From Desulfobacterales bacterium (GTDB taxonomy: Bacteria > Desulfobacterota > Desulfobacteria > Desulfobacterales > 4572-123): DNA of 63,042 nucleotides. Below the pieces are notes generated by a model. The model searched no databases, was not told where the DNA came from, and was given only the letters and a program-made list of their open reading frames with translations. Positions 1,497-61,793 of the stretch are shown piece by piece (the stretch's first letter is position 1; each line of letters starts with the position of its first letter). Both the position numbers and the translations under genes were made by a program. The stretch spans positions 1 through 63,042 of the forward strand of contig JAOZSJ010000006.1 in the NCBI GenBank assembly GCA_029939715.1, read 5' to 3'.

Positions 1497-3272
1497 ATGA
1501 AATTTCCATACGGTGTATGCGACTTTAAAAAAATTAATACACAGGGGTATTTTTACTGTGACAGAACAGATAAAATCAACCTGCTTGAAAAATCCGATTC
1601 CCAGCTTTTTATCCGACCCAGGCGTTTTGGCAAAAGCCTTGTTCTTTCAATGCTGGAAAATTATTATGATGTGGCAAAAAAAGACGAATTCGAGGCAATT
1701 TTCGGAAATTTAGAAATCGGCAGGTATCCAACAAAATTACGAAATTCATACTTTATCCTGAAATTCGATTTTTCCTGCGTTGACCCCACTGGAAGTGCAA
1801 GGGAAGTCAAAGAAGCCTTGTTTGATCACATTAATGACTGCATCAAAGAATTTATTCTTTATTACAGAGAATATAATCTTCCTGGTATTGAAATAAACAA
1901 AAACAATGCCATAAGTTCAGTCAAATCGCTGGTAAGCGCAGTCCGCATTACCCCATACCCGGTCTATCTCCTGATAGATGAGTATGATAATTTTGCCAAT
2001 ACGGTAATGATGGGTGTACAGACCGATAAAACAAGATATAAAGCTCTCGTACATGATGAAGGCCCCATAAGAACTTTTTTCAAGGCTGTAAAATCTTCCA
2101 CATCCGGTTCCATGTTTGATCGTGTTTTTATAACAGGGGTTTCGCCTGTTGTGATGAGTGATATTACCAGCGGATATAATATTGCTGAAAATATATATTT
2201 TGAACCTGAGTTTAATGATCTGTGCGGGTTTAAGCAGAATGAAATTGAGGATGTGATTAAAAAAGTTGTTGATCAATGCGGCTTTGAAAAGGAAAAAATC
2301 CGGGAAGCTGTCAATTTGATGCAGACTTATTACAACGGCTATACGTTTTCACATGCGACAGTTGAGCCTGTCTATAATCCGACGCTGTCTCTATATTTTT
2401 TTAAACAATTTCAAAAAATGTGCAAATACCCCAGAGAGATGCTGGATGACAATCTTGCCGTGGACGAATCAAAGCTTGAATATATAGCCCGGATTCCCAG
2501 GGGAAGAGATCTTTTATTGAAATTGATGGAAAATGAATGCCGGGTGACTGCATCAAAAATCAGTAAACGTTTTGGCATCAGGGAAATGCTGGCGGATAAA
2601 TCCAGGAACAATACGTTCCTTGTCTCTTTTCTTTATTATTTTGGCGTTTTGACCATTGTAGAAGATACAGAAAATCTTGAAATAATTTTAAAAGTTCCCA
2701 ATCTGGTTATGAAAAGTCTTTATGTAGAAAGGATTCAGAAGATGCTGCTATCTGAACCCGGCGACAGGGATGATGGTAAAAACGCTGCAAAACTTGTTTA
2801 CCAAAAAGGGAATATGGCACCTTTATGCAAATTTATGGAGGACCGATATTTTAAGGTTTTTCATAACAGGGACTATCGGTGGGCAAACGAGTTGACTGTA
2901 AAGACTGCTTTTCTCACTCTGCTTTACAATGATATTATCTATATCATGGATTCTGAAGCTGAAATTGATCCCAGGTATGCAGATCTCACGATGATCATCA
3001 GGCCGGATAAAAGATATGGTAAAGTATTTGATGTATTGATTGAATTTAAGTTTGTAAGGCTCAAAGAGGCAGGGATAAACGCTGATAAGGCACAAGATCT
3101 GGCCGAGGATGAACTGGTGCTGATTCCTGAAGTTGCAAATCAGTTAACAGATGGTGAAAAACAAGTGCTGGAATACGGAAACAAGCTTGAACAAAGGTAT
3201 GGAAACCTTAGATTGCAGAAATTTGTAGTCGTGGCTCTGGGGTTTGAAAGGGTCTGTTTCAGAAAGGTTTGA
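1497..3272 (+). CDS. AAA-ATPase-like protein with C-terminal PD-(D/E)XK nuclease domain
   Basis: Start motif PYG..DFK; Walker A RPRRFGKS; Walker B LLIDEYD; C-terminal RYADL...VLIEFK nuclease motif. Confidence 0.85.
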   Translation: MKFPYGVCDFKKINTQGYFYCDRTDKINLLEKSDSQLFIRPRRFGKSLVLSMLENYYDVAKKDEFEAIFGNLEIGRYPTKLRNSYFILKFDFSCVDPTGSAREVKEALFDHINDCIKEFILYYREYNLPGIEINKNNAISSVKSLVSAVRITPYPVYLLIDEYDNFANTVMMGVQTDKTRYKALVHDEGPIRTFFKAVKSSTSGSMFDRVFITGVSPVVMSDITSGYNIAENIYFEPEFNDLCGFKQNEIEDVIKKVVDQCGFEKEKIREAVNLMQTYYNGYTFSHATVEPVYNPTLSLYFFKQFQKMCKYPREMLDDNLAVDESKLEYIARIPRGRDLLLKLMENECRVTASKISKRFGIREMLADKSRNNTFLVSFLYYFGVLTIVEDTENLEIILKVPNLVMKSLYVERIQKMLLSEPGDRDDGKNAAKLVYQKGNMAPLCKFMEDRYFKVFHNRDYRWANELTVKTAFLTLLYNDIIYIMDSEAEIDPRYADLTMIIRPDKRYGKVFDVLIEFKFVRLKEAGINADKAQDLAEDELVLIPEVANQLTDGEKQVLEYGNKLEQRYGNLRLQKFVVVALGFERVCFRKV

Positions 3273-3439: not shown

Positions 3440-4240
3440 ATGCCTGATATGTCTCCAAAAACAATTTTGCAGGACCTGGGTGCCGGAAGCATTTCCTTTT
3501 TACAGGAAATGGGGCAGATGGGCCTTTTTTTTATTCAGGCTTTTGTTCTTATATTTACACGCCCTTTCCAGGTGTCTAAATTTATCCAGCAGATGTATTT
3601 TATCGGGGCCAAATCGGTCTTTGTGATTTTTCTGACCGGAGGTTTTACCGGTATGGTGCTCGGGCTGCAGGGATATTATACCCTGGTTAAATTCGGGTCC
3701 GAGGGGATGCTGGGGGCAGCGGTTTCTCTTTCCCTGATCAGGGAACTGGGACCGACCCTGACCGCCATCATGATTACCGGTCGTGCCGGTTCCGCCATGG
3801 CCGCCGAGATCGGCATCATGCGAATATCCGAACAGATCGATGCTCTGGTCACCATGGACATCAACCCGGTTCGTTTTCTGGTCAGCCCGCGGATTGCCGC
3901 GGCGATTATCAGCTTTCCTTTGCTGACGGCCCTGTTTGATGTAGTAGGCATCATGGGCGGCTACCTGACCGGTTCAGTCTTGCTGGGTATCAACTCAGGA
4001 GCTTATTTCTGGCGGATTGAATCCAGCGTGGTAATGCAGGATATAAGCAGCGGATTTATCAAATCGGTGGTTTTTGCGGCCATTGTCGTTCTGGTTTGCT
4101 GTTTCCAGGGATACACCACCCATACCCGCTCGGAAGGGTTCGGTGCCAGGGGTGTCAGTTTTTCCACCACCACCGCAGTGGTCATGTCCAGCGTACTTAT
4201 ACTGGTGTTCGACTATGTATTGACATCGATTTTGCTTTAA
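3440..4240 (+). CDS. mlaE: MlaE family ABC permease
   Basis: RELGPTLTAIMITGRAGSAMAAEIGIMRISEQIDAL signature; GARGVSFSTTTAVV. Confidence 0.95.
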   Translation: MPDMSPKTILQDLGAGSISFLQEMGQMGLFFIQAFVLIFTRPFQVSKFIQQMYFIGAKSVFVIFLTGGFTGMVLGLQGYYTLVKFGSEGMLGAAVSLSLIRELGPTLTAIMITGRAGSAMAAEIGIMRISEQIDALVTMDINPVRFLVSPRIAAAIISFPLLTALFDVVGIMGGYLTGSVLLGINSGAYFWRIESSVVMQDISSGFIKSVVFAAIVVLVCCFQGYTTHTRSEGFGARGVSFSTTTAVVMSSVLILVFDYVLTSILL

Positions 4241-4344
4241 AGCACTGATTTTTATTTTTTTACCGTTTTGTGAAAATGTGTTATTTGCGGCCTGCGCCTT
4301 TTCAACAGCATTGGGCCGGCCGGATTTAGGGATTTAAGAAAAAT

Positions 4345-5556
4345 ATGCCGGAACCGTTGATACAGCTTGAGAATGTACATAAAAAATTCGGTAATCATGT
4401 GATTTTAAACGGCGTTGATCTTAGTATCTACGGTGGCGAAGTCTTGACGGTTATCGGCAAGAGCGGCGGGGGCAAGAGCGTTCTGCTTAAGCATGTGATC
4501 GGTCTGCTCACACCTGATTCAGGACGTATTGTATATGAAGGGCGATCCATTGATGACATGAAAAAAGCCGAGCGAAGAGCCTTGAAAAACAGGTTCAGCT
4601 ACATGTTTCAGGGAACGGCTCTTTTTGATTCGATGCCTGTTTATGATAATATTGCTTTGCCGCTGAAAGAAAAAGCCCGGTTGTCCGGTCCTGCGATTAA
4701 AGACAAGGTATATGAAAAAATGTCACAGCTCGACCTGCATGACATTGAGGAAAAGTATCCGTCCCAGATTTCCGGCGGGATGAAAAAACGGGTGGCTTTG
4801 GCAAGAGCCCTGGTGACAGATCCGGAGATTGTTTTGTTTGATGAACCAACGACCGGTCTGGACCCTATACGGAAAAATGCCGTGCACAGCATGATCTGCG
4901 ATTATCAAAGCAAGTTCGGTTTTACCGCCGTGGTGGTGAGCCATGAAATTCCGGATGTGTTTTTTATTTCCCAGCGAATCGCCATGCTGGACAGAGGGCG
5001 TATTCATTTTCAGGGCACTCCCGATGAAATTAAAAATATCGATGATCCCGTGGTCAATGAGTTTATCAAAGGGCTGGAGGCAGAGCAGGATGATCTGACC
5101 GGCATGGATACGCATACCTACGGAGAACAGAAGTTCCAGATTGAAATGGAACAGTTGAAAGGAAACGGTAAAACCTTTTCACTGGTTTTGTTCAAGGTGG
5201 ATAACATGGAAGAGATCAACAATAAATGGGGACATACGGAAGGTCAGCGGGTTTTGAAAAATTTTGCCGAACATATTACAAATAATTTACGGCACAATGA
5301 TATCTGCAGCCGCCTGGGACTGAACCGGATCATGCTGCTGATGCCTGATACTAAAATAGATGGAGCGCGCCATGTCTGTGCCAGGATGGCCGGAAATCTG
5401 AAAAGTGCGGATGTTATGGGAGATCGACTGCAAGCCGGCTTCTGCTTTTCCGTCAGTGCCGGGTTTGCGCAGGCGCACAAGGAAAGCACTATGGACGAAA
5501 TGCTGGAAAGGGCCAAGTCCGACCAGAATAAATTTTATGATTTCCGGATCTGTTGA
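4345..5556 (+). CDS. mlaF: MlaF ABC ATPase fused to degenerate GGDEF domain
   Basis: Walker A GKSGGGKS, signature ISGGMKKR, Walker B LFDEPT, H-loop VSH; extra ~150 aa with a GGDEF-like pattern (FSLVLFKVDNMEEINNKWGH...RHNDICSRLGLNRI...SVSAGFA). Confidence 0.9.
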   Translation: MPEPLIQLENVHKKFGNHVILNGVDLSIYGGEVLTVIGKSGGGKSVLLKHVIGLLTPDSGRIVYEGRSIDDMKKAERRALKNRFSYMFQGTALFDSMPVYDNIALPLKEKARLSGPAIKDKVYEKMSQLDLHDIEEKYPSQISGGMKKRVALARALVTDPEIVLFDEPTTGLDPIRKNAVHSMICDYQSKFGFTAVVVSHEIPDVFFISQRIAMLDRGRIHFQGTPDEIKNIDDPVVNEFIKGLEAEQDDLTGMDTHTYGEQKFQIEMEQLKGNGKTFSLVLFKVDNMEEINNKWGHTEGQRVLKNFAEHITNNLRHNDICSRLGLNRIMLLMPDTKIDGARHVCARMAGNLKSADVMGDRLQAGFCFSVSAGFAQAHKESTMDEMLERAKSDQNKFYDFRIC

Positions 5557-5594: not shown

Positions 5595-6041
5595 ATGAAA
5601 AAGTCGACCACTGAAATTTCGGTAGGTGTTTTTGTCATGATAGGACTGCTGTGCGTTGGTTATTTAACAATCAAGCTGGGACAGATGGAGCTTTTAGGGG
5701 ATGATTATTATCTGCTCAGCGCCAGATTTGATAATGTCAGCGGCTTGAGGCCCGGAGCACAGGTCGAGATGGCCGGTGTGAAAATCGGTCAGGTGGATTC
5801 CATCACTCTTGACAGGGAAACGCTGTTTGCCATTGTCGGACTAAAGATCCAGAACAGCATGGAATTGTCCGATGACGCCATCGCTTCGGTCAAGACTTCG
5901 GGTATTATCGGCGATAAATATGTCAAGATCATTGCCGGCGGGTCGGATGATATGTTAAAACCCGGTGATATGATTACGGATACGGAATCGGCGGTGGACA
6001 TCGAGGAGTTGATCAGCAAGTATGTGTTCGGAGGGGTTTGA
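5595..6041 (+). CDS. mlaD: MlaD (MCE domain) protein
   Basis: N-terminal TM; ARFDNVSGLRPGAQVEMAGVKIGQV; TSGIIGDKYV. Confidence 0.95.
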   Translation: MKKSTTEISVGVFVMIGLLCVGYLTIKLGQMELLGDDYYLLSARFDNVSGLRPGAQVEMAGVKIGQVDSITLDRETLFAIVGLKIQNSMELSDDAIASVKTSGIIGDKYVKIIAGGSDDMLKPGDMITDTESAVDIEELISKYVFGGV

Positions 6042-6068: not shown

Positions 6069-6689
6069 ATGAAAAAGTTTTTGTTTGCGGCAGTTTTTTT
6101 AATGTGCATGGGAATGATCAATACGGTATCTGCCGTCGAACCCATGGAAGCCCTCAGGGAACCCATGGAAAAGATACTGAATCTGCTGGCGGACCCCCAG
6201 TATAAGGAAGCGAACACCAAGAGCCTGCAGCGGCAGCAGATTACAGCTATCACAAGCAGCCTGTTTGATTATACCGAGATGGCTAAACGTGCCCTGGCAA
6301 GGAACTGGAAGATTTTTACGCCGGCTCAGAGGAAGGAGTTCAGGGATGTTTTTGCCGATCTGCTGGAAACCACCTATTACAGCAAAGTTTACGGTGAATA
6401 TACCAATGAGACGATAACCTATCAGAAACAACAGAAAATTTCCGATGTCAAGGCCCGGGTTGAAACATTGATTCACCGGAAAACAGTGGATGTCCCGATA
6501 AAGTACAGCATGAAGTTAAGCAAGGGCGTGTGGCGGGTATATGACGTCAATATTGAAGGCGTCAGCCTGATTAAGAATTATCGTTCCCAGTTTGCCAAAA
6601 TTCTCAACAAGAATAAGCCGGAATACTTAATACAACGGCTCAGGGATAAGGTTGCTTTGCTTGAAAAAGGTGAGAATCCGGAGACATGA
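6069..6689 (+). CDS. mlaC: MlaC/Ttg2D periplasmic lipid-binding protein
   Basis: Signal peptide; FDYTEMAKRALARNW; WRVYDVNIEGVSLIKNYRSQF. Confidence 0.93.
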   Translation: MKKFLFAAVFLMCMGMINTVSAVEPMEALREPMEKILNLLADPQYKEANTKSLQRQQITAITSSLFDYTEMAKRALARNWKIFTPAQRKEFRDVFADLLETTYYSKVYGEYTNETITYQKQQKISDVKARVETLIHRKTVDVPIKYSMKLSKGVWRVYDVNIEGVSLIKNYRSQFAKILNKNKPEYLIQRLRDKVALLEKGENPET

Positions 6690-7531
6690 TGAAATACGCT
6701 GCTTTTTTGTCTGTTGTTTTAACTCTGCTGCTGAGTATGGGCTGTGCGGCCCATAACGCATCCACGGAATCCGGAGATGTGCTGTCCCAGCCCATCCAGC
6801 CGGCAACGCAGGCAACTGAAAAAGATTTCGTGGAGCAGCAGGACCTGACCGAAGTTGATTCTGAATTTTTAGATGACAGTCTTGATTTTCTGGATGAAGA
6901 GGATGAGGACTTTGAGGATGATATCCGGATTGCGGATCCGATTGCACCACTGAACAAGGTTATATACCATTTTAATGATAAACTGTACTTCTGGGTCTTG
7001 AAACCCGCGGCAAAGGGCTATCGGGCCGTTGTGCCGCATGTTGTTCGAAACAGCGTGAAGAATTTTTTTGTAAATCTTACTTTTCCGGCCCGTTTTGTCA
7101 ACAGCCTGCTGCAGGCCAAAGGACAGAACGCCTCGGATGAACTGGGCCGATTCCTGTTCAACAGCACGGTGGGTGTGCTCGGTTTCTGGGATGCCGCCGA
7201 CAGGTTTTATCCGAATCTGAATCCTGTTTCCGAAGACCTGGGACAGACTTTGGGCAGGTATCGAATGGGCAATGGCTTTTATATTGTCTGGCCAATTCTG
7301 GGGCCGTCCACATTAAGAGATTCGGTCGGTATGATCGGCGACCGGTTCCTGAATCCCGTGACCTATGTGGAACCGGCGGAGGCATCACTGGGTGTCAGCG
7401 CGTATGATAAGGTAAACAGCCTCTCTTTTCGCATCGGTGATTACGAGGCATTGAAAGATGCAGCCCTGGACCCGTATGAAGCGTTTCGGGATGCATACAT
7501 TCAATACCGGCAGAAAAAGGTAGAGGAATAG
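6686..7531 (+). CDS. mlaA: MlaA/VacJ lipoprotein
   Basis: Lipoprotein-type signal ending MGC; DPIAPLNK..FND; EDLGQTLG; WPILGPSTLRD. Confidence 0.93.
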   Translation: MMKYAAFLSVVLTLLLSMGCAAHNASTESGDVLSQPIQPATQATEKDFVEQQDLTEVDSEFLDDSLDFLDEEDEDFEDDIRIADPIAPLNKVIYHFNDKLYFWVLKPAAKGYRAVVPHVVRNSVKNFFVNLTFPARFVNSLLQAKGQNASDELGRFLFNSTVGVLGFWDAADRFYPNLNPVSEDLGQTLGRYRMGNGFYIVWPILGPSTLRDSVGMIGDRFLNPVTYVEPAEASLGVSAYDKVNSLSFRIGDYEALKDAALDPYEAFRDAYIQYRQKKVEE

Positions 7532-30156: not shown

Positions 30157-30537
30157 ATGAATCATCGACAGAAAACAGAAGAAAGAAGAAGATTCAGGCG
30201 GTTTGGGGTACTTGGCCGGGGGTTTTCGGTTGTTCATTACGATTCCGGAGAAATTATAGGGGAGCTTGCGGATATCAGCAGCGGCGGAATGGCATTTTTG
30301 TCAGAGCCCGATGAATTTTTCATGCCCGAGTATTCTAAAATTGATCTCCTGCAGCTTTCCGATGGCGTCCTTTTGAACAGCGTTCCTGTGCGGCATGTTT
30401 CAAGTACCGACGGTTATTTTGAAATAAACCGGCAGAGGATGAAAATGGTGCGCAACAGCCTTGGTTTCCAGGCCCTGGATTCTGATCAGCAAAAAGAACT
30501 GGGAAAGTTTATCCGTAATTATGCCCAAATTCAATGA
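30157..30537 (+). CDS. PilZ domain protein
   Basis: RxxxR (ERRRFRR) and DxSxxG (DISSGG) c-di-GMP-binding motifs. Confidence 0.85.
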   Translation: MNHRQKTEERRRFRRFGVLGRGFSVVHYDSGEIIGELADISSGGMAFLSEPDEFFMPEYSKIDLLQLSDGVLLNSVPVRHVSSTDGYFEINRQRMKMVRNSLGFQALDSDQQKELGKFIRNYAQIQ

Positions 30538-61441: not shown

Positions 61442-61793
61442 GGGGGCGAAACGGCTTCGACGGGGATATAGAAGCTATGGTTGCATACCGAGTTCCTGCC
61501 AGCTCGTAAAACCGGCGGGAAATAAACATAATCGCAGACGATTATAACTACGCTCTGGCCGCTTAAGGCCAGCGTTCTGCCGGATTATTCCTGCGCATCC
61601 GGTAAGAGCGTCGACTAGCGGGATAAACTTGTTTTGGATGTTTGCTCCGATTCAGGTGAAATTTTGCAGACTAGTCTTTAAAGTATCCTGCCTGAAGGAG
61701 ACTTAAAAGGCGAACTATAGAGTTCGGGCTAAGTATGTAGATACCATTGTGGAATATTTTCGGACGCGGGTTCGACTCCCGCCGCCTCCACCA
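61442..61793 (+). ncRNA. ssrA: tmRNA; tag peptide (A)ADDYNYALAA
   Basis: 5' GGGGGCG pairs with 3' CGCCUCC-A-CCA including the G3:U alanine identity pair; T-loop GGTTCGACTCC; tag ORF at 61534-61566; follows smpB. Confidence 0.97.

Follow-up and report, generated by a model that had tools for sequence, protein, structure and literature searches.

ModC and MalK are the ATPases of ATP-binding cassette (ABC) importers that end in C-terminal trans-inhibition domains, and osmolyte ABC ATPases of the OpuCA/OpuAA type bind cyclic di-AMP (c-di-AMP) through C-terminal CBS domains. Degenerate GGDEF domains can also act as sensors, as in PopA of Caulobacter, a receptor for cyclic di-GMP (c-di-GMP) that works via its I-site. 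For the Mla phospholipid transporter, post-translational regulation is to our knowledge largely open, the sole handle known to us being MlaB together with a C-terminal handshake of the ATPase MlaF in Gammaproteobacteria. The subject of this work is a gene in a 63,042-nucleotide stretch of a Desulfobacterales genome (GenBank assembly GCA_029939715.1, contig JAOZSJ010000006.1, positions 1 to 63,042; hereafter, the window). At positions 4345–5556 on the + strand, it encodes a 403-amino acid protein in which an MlaF-type ABC ATPase (residues 1–244) is fused directly to a GGDEF domain.

The two halves of this protein have well-described counterparts. MlaF of Escherichia coli carries a C-terminal extension (CTE) of ~25 amino acids that shakes hands with the other subunit and contacts MlaB; deletion of the CTE abolishes function, a GCN4 dimeriser rescues it, and MlaB is required to hold MlaF on MlaE (PMC7367683). 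The methionine of the LSGGM signature is rare among ABC transporters and is a hallmark of Mla/TGD nucleotide-binding domains (NBDs), and MetNI trans-inhibition is discussed with respect to MlaF in the same paper (PMC7367683). The I-site is defined in the diguanylate cyclase PleD by R359, D362 and R390, completed by R313 of the neighbouring domain; c-di-GMP bound there cross-links and immobilises cyclases, and D344 of PleD binds guanine (PMC7288161).

Architecture of the MlaF–GGDEF fusion

The ATPase half of the fusion (4345–5076) matches Pfam ABC_tran over residues 21–170 (E 3.6e-33). The best Mla match of the whole protein in NCBIfam, PRK11831 (MlaF), covers residues 5–244 at 179 bits against a curated cut-off of 441 and, being below that cut-off, marks the protein as a member of the MlaF family and not an E. 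coli-type equivalog. All ABC motifs are complete (Walker A GKSGGGKS, Q-loop Q89, signature ISGGM at 142–146, Walker B LFDEP with D166 and E167, H-loop H200), and the catalytic residues hardly vary, if at all, across an alignment of 61 sequences (A3). An AlphaFold2 monomer model built from the 61-sequence alignment had a mean predicted local distance difference test score (pLDDT) of 84.8, compared with only 50.7 for an earlier model from eight sequences, and the ABC part reached about 90. The best Foldseek matches of the model were the MlaF chains of MlaFEDB structures; for 6xbd_I the E value was 2.7e-27, with a template modelling (TM) score of 0.86 normalised to the target and a root mean square deviation of 1.9 Å over 242 columns.

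Against MlaF of E. coli, A. baumannii and P. aeruginosa in MlaFEDB (6xbd, 6xgy, 7d06, 7cha), the ABC fold is the same (target-normalised TM 0.82–0.90, 34–35% identity), as are the LSGGM-type signature and the operon partners MlaE, MlaD, MlaC and MlaA. In contrast, the window protein has neither the ~25-amino acid handshake nor MlaB: its ABC match ends at residue 244, the GGDEF match begins at ~247, and a 159-amino acid GGDEF-like domain follows the ABC core. The partners are encoded around it in the order mlaE-F-D-C-A, with every gene on the + strand. Upstream lies the mlaE permease gene (3440–4240, 266 amino acids; Pfam MlaE E 3.7e-77, TIGR00056 above cut-off), and downstream are mlaD (5595–6041, 148 amino acids; TIGR04430 OM_asym_MlaD, 165 bits against a cut-off of 135), mlaC (6069–6689, 206 amino acids; Pfam MlaC E 4e-43) and the lipoprotein gene mlaA (6686–7531, 281 amino acids; Pfam MlaA E 3.4e-69). 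The product of 4345–5556 is accordingly the ATPase that powers a phospholipid transporter of the canonical Mla (MlaFEDCA) type.

The C-terminal tail, residues 245–403 with the stop codon (5077–5556), was assigned as a degenerate GGDEF domain from Pfam, phmmer searches of PDB chains and the AlphaFold2 model. It matches Pfam GGDEF (PF00990) over residues 247–391 (E 7.2e-22), and the 78.3 bits scored by the protein pass the gathering cut-off of 23.8. The tail opens with a DxLTG motif at 249–253, immediately past the last ABC helix, and the protein matched 39 diguanylate cyclase chains in the PDB, the best being 3ign (E 1.8e-15). Residues 316–329 translate exactly to RHNDICSRLGLNRI. In the printed alignments, RHND (R316 to D319, 5290–5301) lies on the I-site RQSD of 3ign, RLGLNRI on RYGGEEF and FKVD on FDID; the RxxD-x5-GGDEF spacing therefore reflects true homology and not chance.

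Residue by residue, using our own count along the alignment for PleD numbers and taking residue roles from PMC7288161, the catalytic centre has been dismantled and the I-site retained. Within FKVDN (residues 283–287), K284 replaces the metal-binding Asp D327, and D286 keeps D329; within NNKWGHTEGQ (residues 292–301), N292 keeps N335, and Q301 replaces the guanine-binding Asp D344. GLNRI (5317–5331) stands in place of GG[DE]EF. An active cyclase requires GG[DE]EF and both of these aspartates, and the tail is, on its residues, catalytically dead with its active site destroyed. The primary I-site residues R359, D362 and R390 of PleD are all kept, as R316, D319 and R347 (5383–5385), respectively, giving an RxxD five residues before the motif plus the basic R390 counterpart, the sequence pattern of an I-site-type degenerate GGDEF receptor. 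Q270 occupies the position of R313, the arginine given by the neighbouring domain, which is lost in the genus of the window. A sequence-only reading of this stretch had described the RxxD-x5-GGDEF spacing with a wrecked active site, an altered metal-binding region, an intact I-site and an mlaE-F-D-C-A operon. Translation and the phmmer alignments bear out the spacing, K284 and Q301 stand where the metal-binding and guanine-binding aspartates would be, the I-site extends to R347 as well, and the Pfam and NCBIfam calls recover the operon.

The tail shares its dead GGDEF domain, the RxxD five residues upstream and a basic residue on the next helix with the I-site receptors PelD (P. aeruginosa, 4dn0/4euv) and PopA (Caulobacter). 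It differs in its partner, an ABC ATPase as opposed to a membrane/GAF module (PelD) or receiver domains (PopA), and in the missing trans-arginine counterpart of PleD R313; c-di-GMP binding is only predicted here. On the transporter side, Foldseek aligned about 363 columns of the whole model with MetN, in which a regulatory domain follows the NBD at the C-terminus; this for a predicted model indicates a similar two-domain architecture only. The C2 domain of MetN (MetNI, 3tui/6cvl) is likewise a small alpha/beta domain fused directly after the NBD, but MetN, ModC and MalK have ACT-like or TOBE folds where this protein has a GGDEF fold, and they respond to the transported substrate whereas the putative ligand here is a second messenger. 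OpuCA/OpuAA offers a parallel in that respect, with a cyclic dinucleotide-sensing domain at the C-terminus of an ABC ATPase (as predicted for the window protein), yet the messenger, sensor fold and transporter class all differ. The tail itself has GGDEF-type topology in the model (pLDDT 65–91), and the whole-model Foldseek search, which the ABC domain dominates, returned no independent structural match for it. We found no description of such a fusion in the literature on MlaF with GGDEF or c-di-GMP, or on GGDEF domains with ABC transporters (Desulfovibrio included). The protein newly combines two known kinds, the degenerate GGDEF receptor of the I-site type and the ABC ATPase that ends in a regulatory domain, and is not a new kind of system.

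Distribution of the tail and conservation of the I-site

A search with the tail alone across 201 genomes of the same order gave full-length matches at E ≤ 1e-19, inside frames of ~403–415 amino acids, in ~80 genomes; ordinary GGDEF proteins began at about 1e-17. From these, 40 same-order orthologues were extracted by tail similarity and without regard to the I-site motif, and all 40 loci have the mlaE-F-D-C-A order as far as their contigs extend. Among 401 sampled genomes of the phylum, 39 have a full-length tailed MlaF, representing at least 15 families outside the order of the window, and most of the remainder have an MlaF of ~250 amino acids; the 34 phylum-level tailed loci retrieved lie in the same operon. 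Named records with the fusion include Desulfobacteraceae and Desulfobacterales metagenome-assembled genomes (MAGs), Desulfonema limicola, a Desulfovibrionaceae MAG, Desulfovibrio sp. and a Lentisphaerales MAG. Tailed MlaFs of ~400 amino acids also make up many clusters, at 50% identity, in a library of 1.84 billion representatives, ranging from well-matching to barely recognisable.

Could the tail be an evolutionary relic, functionless and merely tolerated? Its catalytic activity is lost and tail-less relatives exist, as a relic would predict, but all 88 tailed MlaFs compared have the tail as an intact open frame of steady length (about 155–170 amino acids), with no stops or truncations save at contig ends. 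With this constancy extending to the 15 or more families outside the order, and with many positions strongly conserved, we regard a relic as most improbable.

Several other MlaF-like proteins among the representatives have unusual C-termini. For ten representatives of ~380–407 amino acids, neither Pfam nor a hidden Markov model (HMM) of the tail built here matched the tail; P0039, P0042, P0043, P0052, P0060, P0069, P0071, P0116 and others are MlaF-like proteins of ~370–407 amino acids with ~140-amino acid tails of this sort, and MlaF may bear further unrecognised C-terminal domains. P0031, a 426-amino acid MlaF-like protein, has a near-canonical tail with RKSD followed by RFGGKEF and with the guanine-pocket Asn and Asp kept; it appears to be a fusion of this sort that has degenerated less. 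One genome (G343) has a single mla operon with two tailed MlaF genes: the first, at L137:2469–3773 (−), is in the usual position and has a tail lacking the I-site, and the second, at L137:6672–8027 (−), follows mlaA, is 56% identical to the window protein and reads E-I-T-D, keeping the Asp and losing the Arg.

Within the order, the tail is variable (median pairwise identity about 36% among the 40 orthologues) and the I-site is not. D319 is present in 40/40 and is the sole invariant tail residue in the alignment (A2); R316 is found in 36/40, a Lys or Arg at 347 in 35/40 and R270 in 28/40. The active site is replaced throughout, with T, K or S at position 284, Q301 in 31/40 and N292 kept in 21/40, and GG[DE]EF is absent from every one of the 40 orthologues and from the whole set of 88 tailed MlaFs. 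The primary I-site (R316, D319, R347) thus appears to be under purifying selection within the order. These conservation claims use the order-level set of 40, and another count, which defined the clade by D319 itself, was set aside as circular.

Across the 88 tailed MlaFs two groups emerge. Fifty keep D319, including all those of the same order, with tail identities to the window protein of 26–100%; among them the full RxxD is present in 42 and a Lys or Arg at 347 in 43. The other 38 lack the I-site and come almost wholly from other orders plus the Desulfovibrionaceae and Lentisphaerales records. Their tails are 12–30% identical to that of the window, have G-x-G-G in place of RxxD and, in 37 of the 38, a non-basic (acidic or small) residue at 347. 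R316, D319 and K/R347 appear, from these alignments, to be kept together or lost together. The sequence-only reading had made RxxD conservation across homologous fusions a check on its proposal; that conservation holds within the order and breaks down in the wider family, where 38/88 have lost all three residues.

In a tree of ABC domains, a branch with an SH-aLRT value of 100 separates all tailed MlaFs and a tail-less group from Desulfobacter/Desulfobacula from 54 plain MlaFs of Nitrospirota, Geobacteraceae and others. The tails lacking the I-site form one group in this tree. Monophyly of all tailed MlaFs was not rejected by the approximately unbiased (AU) test (p 0.76), which makes a single origin of the fusion compatible with the data. 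A quick tree suggested secondary loss of the tail in Desulfobacter/Desulfobacula; given the AU result, the tail may have been lost there or may be primitively absent. Q301 and R323 are common to both groups of tailed MlaFs, a pattern consistent with descent from one ancestor that was inactive already.

The group without the I-site shows that the fold does not depend on these residues, and their retention in the group that keeps D319 is therefore better explained by function, namely ligand binding, than by structure. The ligand need not be c-di-GMP: the tail could be a sensor or docking site for another input, such as 3′3′-cGAMP from Hypr-type cyclases in this phylum, a nucleotide, redox state or a metal via cysteines, or a partner protein, for example an active cyclase. 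Conservation of C321 (5305–5307), C345 (5377–5379) and C367 (5443–5445) is confined to the clade with the I-site (0.94, 0.88 and 0.78), without counterparts in the other, and a Cys403 at the C-terminus is common as well. Deltaproteobacteria are among the bacteria with GGDEF enzymes of the Hypr type, which synthesise cGAMP (PMC13090378, PMC7288161), and some degenerate GGDEF domains have other functions, such as GTP sensing by CC3396 and ATPase activity in YybT (PMC7288161). The cysteines may, however, be plain core residues, and no conserved partner gene was found beside tailed-MlaF operons in the order- and phylum-level loci. GTP sensing at the active site is disfavoured by the loss of GTP-binding residues (K284, Q301, no GG[DE]EF, and a poorly conserved N292). 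Taken together, we consider another input distinctly unlikely.

MlaB, ATPase pairing and c-di-GMP

No STAS-domain gene lies in or near the mla operon, and the search covered the whole 3.96-Mb assembly (98% complete), where STAS matches are confined to contigs C148, C218, C41 and C96, away from the operon. The sole free-standing STAS gene, on C148, adjoins an RsbU-like phosphatase/kinase gene and for that reason is assigned to a partner-switching module and not to mlaB. On C96, the STAS domain is the N-terminus of a second MlaE, belonging to a separate MCE system with its own MlaF. This system (L012:2911–7038, −) comprises a 381-amino acid STAS-MlaE, a plain 264-amino acid MlaF, a 337-amino acid MlaD-like protein and an ABC_trans_aux lipoprotein, and it adjoins type VI secretion genes (TssJ, PAAR-like); STAS_2 matches in frames of ~376–423 amino acids in other same-order genomes suggest that the STAS-MlaE fusion is recurrent. 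In five other fusion-bearing genomes, every STAS_2 match either lay on a different contig from the mla operon or was separated from it by more than 150 kb.

The absence of mlaB from the operon, as the sequence-only reading had it, is thus confirmed here and beside the orthologous operons checked. Its corollary, that the GGDEF domain takes over the role of MlaB, does not follow. Desulfobacter, Desulfobacula and many further lineages run the same operon, mlaEFD(C)A, with MlaFs of 246–250 amino acids that have no tail, no E. coli-type extension and no MlaB; of the 66 plain MlaFs compared, most extend fewer than 20 residues past the ABC core. Since tail-less MlaFs run the same operon elsewhere without MlaB, its lack requires no replacement.

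What the tail does in general is constrained by the clade without the I-site: because that clade keeps the tail, the function common to all tails cannot be c-di-GMP sensing. The general role is probably to pair or position the ATPase dimer, or to regulate it, and pairing or positioning is the most economical choice as it fits both the attachment point of the tail and the known E. coli extension. Taken to its limit, this would make the dead GGDEF domain a ligand-independent dimerisation or scaffold domain doing the job of the CTE handshake, with RxxD kept for structure or for an interface. The tail begins exactly where the E. coli CTE begins, an artificial dimeriser can substitute for the CTE (PMC7367683), the residues common to both clades are mostly typical of the GGDEF fold core, and the tail persists in a large clade devoid of R316, D319 and K/R347, with R316 lost even from some members that keep D319. 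This explanation has difficulty with the I-site itself, whose residues are among the most conserved positions of an otherwise divergent tail; since the fold can do without them, structure by itself is unlikely to be the reason. Nor is an extra dimeriser obligatory, given the tail-less 246–250-amino acid MlaFs of sister lineages. As a full account of the tail in the window, we therefore judge ligand-independent pairing rather unlikely.

The genome encodes a c-di-GMP machinery of its own: three other GGDEF proteins with intact GG[DE]EF, one EAL domain, about six domains of the HD-GYP type and nine PilZ domains, including one inside the window at 30181–30513. It is predicted to be able to make and degrade c-di-GMP. 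With the I-site under selection and a genome equipped to make and break the messenger, c-di-GMP binding is the most likely added function, and c-di-GMP sensing could plausibly be a lineage-specific layer atop the general role of the tail. The reading we tentatively prefer, at a confidence just short of probable, is that of an MlaF with a non-catalytic GGDEF tail that would pair the ATPases and bind c-di-GMP at its I-site, coupling lipid transport to the messenger. That c-di-GMP at the I-sites of two MlaF tails directly gates the Mla phospholipid transporter is a claim that we regard as somewhat less likely than not.

Under this c-di-GMP reading, the two tails of an MlaF dimer would sit under the NBDs, like the C-terminal regulatory domains of MetN, ModC and MalK, and would help to pair or position the ATPase subunits. 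In the Desulfobacterales clade of the window, c-di-GMP would bind the I-site formed by R316, D319 and R347, and in most orthologues that also keep an Arg at 270 it could cross-link the two tails. Bound c-di-GMP would then restrict the opening and closing of the NBDs, coupling lipid transport to the cellular level of c-di-GMP. The genus of the window lacks an Arg at 270, and for this reason c-di-GMP may act here within one tail and not by bridging. For the sign of the effect we can offer a guess, held with low confidence, of a brake at high c-di-GMP, by analogy to the immobilisation of cyclases through the I-site and to MetNI trans-inhibition. Extrapolating from the phenotypes of mla mutants, sessile cells might then have an outer leaflet richer in phospholipid and form more vesicles.

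Several observations weigh against a c-di-GMP-gated MlaF. A large sister clade retains the tail without any I-site, and of the 50 tailed MlaFs with D319, 8 have lost R316. GGDEF domains commonly contain RxxD, and part of its conservation could be inherited, not selected. The genus of the window has Gln or His at position 270 where the PleD R313 counterpart would complete the cross-linking. In the AlphaFold2 monomer model, the linker at 241–260 has a pLDDT of 57–66 and the predicted TM score (pTM) is 0.61; with such low linker confidence and pTM, the model does not fix where the tail sits with respect to the ATPase.

Genomic setting and significance

The spacer between mlaE and mlaF (4241–4344) is 104 nucleotides long here, compared with about 4–30 in relatives, including those of the same genus. 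It showed no RNA family, no repeat and no convincing promoter or terminator, and an Rfam scan gave no riboswitch near the mla operon. Directly upstream of the operon, a gene at 1497–3272 (+) encodes a 591-amino acid protein with AAA-ATPase_like and PD-(D/E)XK (PDDEXK_9) domains. The G+C content around this gene is about 38%, against about 47% for the mla operon, and on that basis the gene may be mobile or acquired. At the far end of the window lies a transfer-messenger RNA gene (61442–61793, +; Rfam RF00023, 210.7 bits).

The ATPase for which MlaB and the handshake are the known handle in Gammaproteobacteria is offered another, hard-wired regulatory domain by this fusion, and this in many lineages of sulfate reducers. 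It also provides a natural experiment, with one clade that has a complete c-di-GMP I-site and another that has none. If c-di-GMP does not bind, the tail would still be an unstudied way to pair ABC ATPase domains. If it does, envelope lipid asymmetry would join the processes under the control of the biofilm and motility second messenger. The c-di-GMP reading, if true, would mean that an ABC transporter ATPase is regulated by a degenerate GGDEF domain for the first time, and that lipid homeostasis of the outer membrane, perhaps along with vesicle release, is for the first time in any bacterium controlled by a second messenger.

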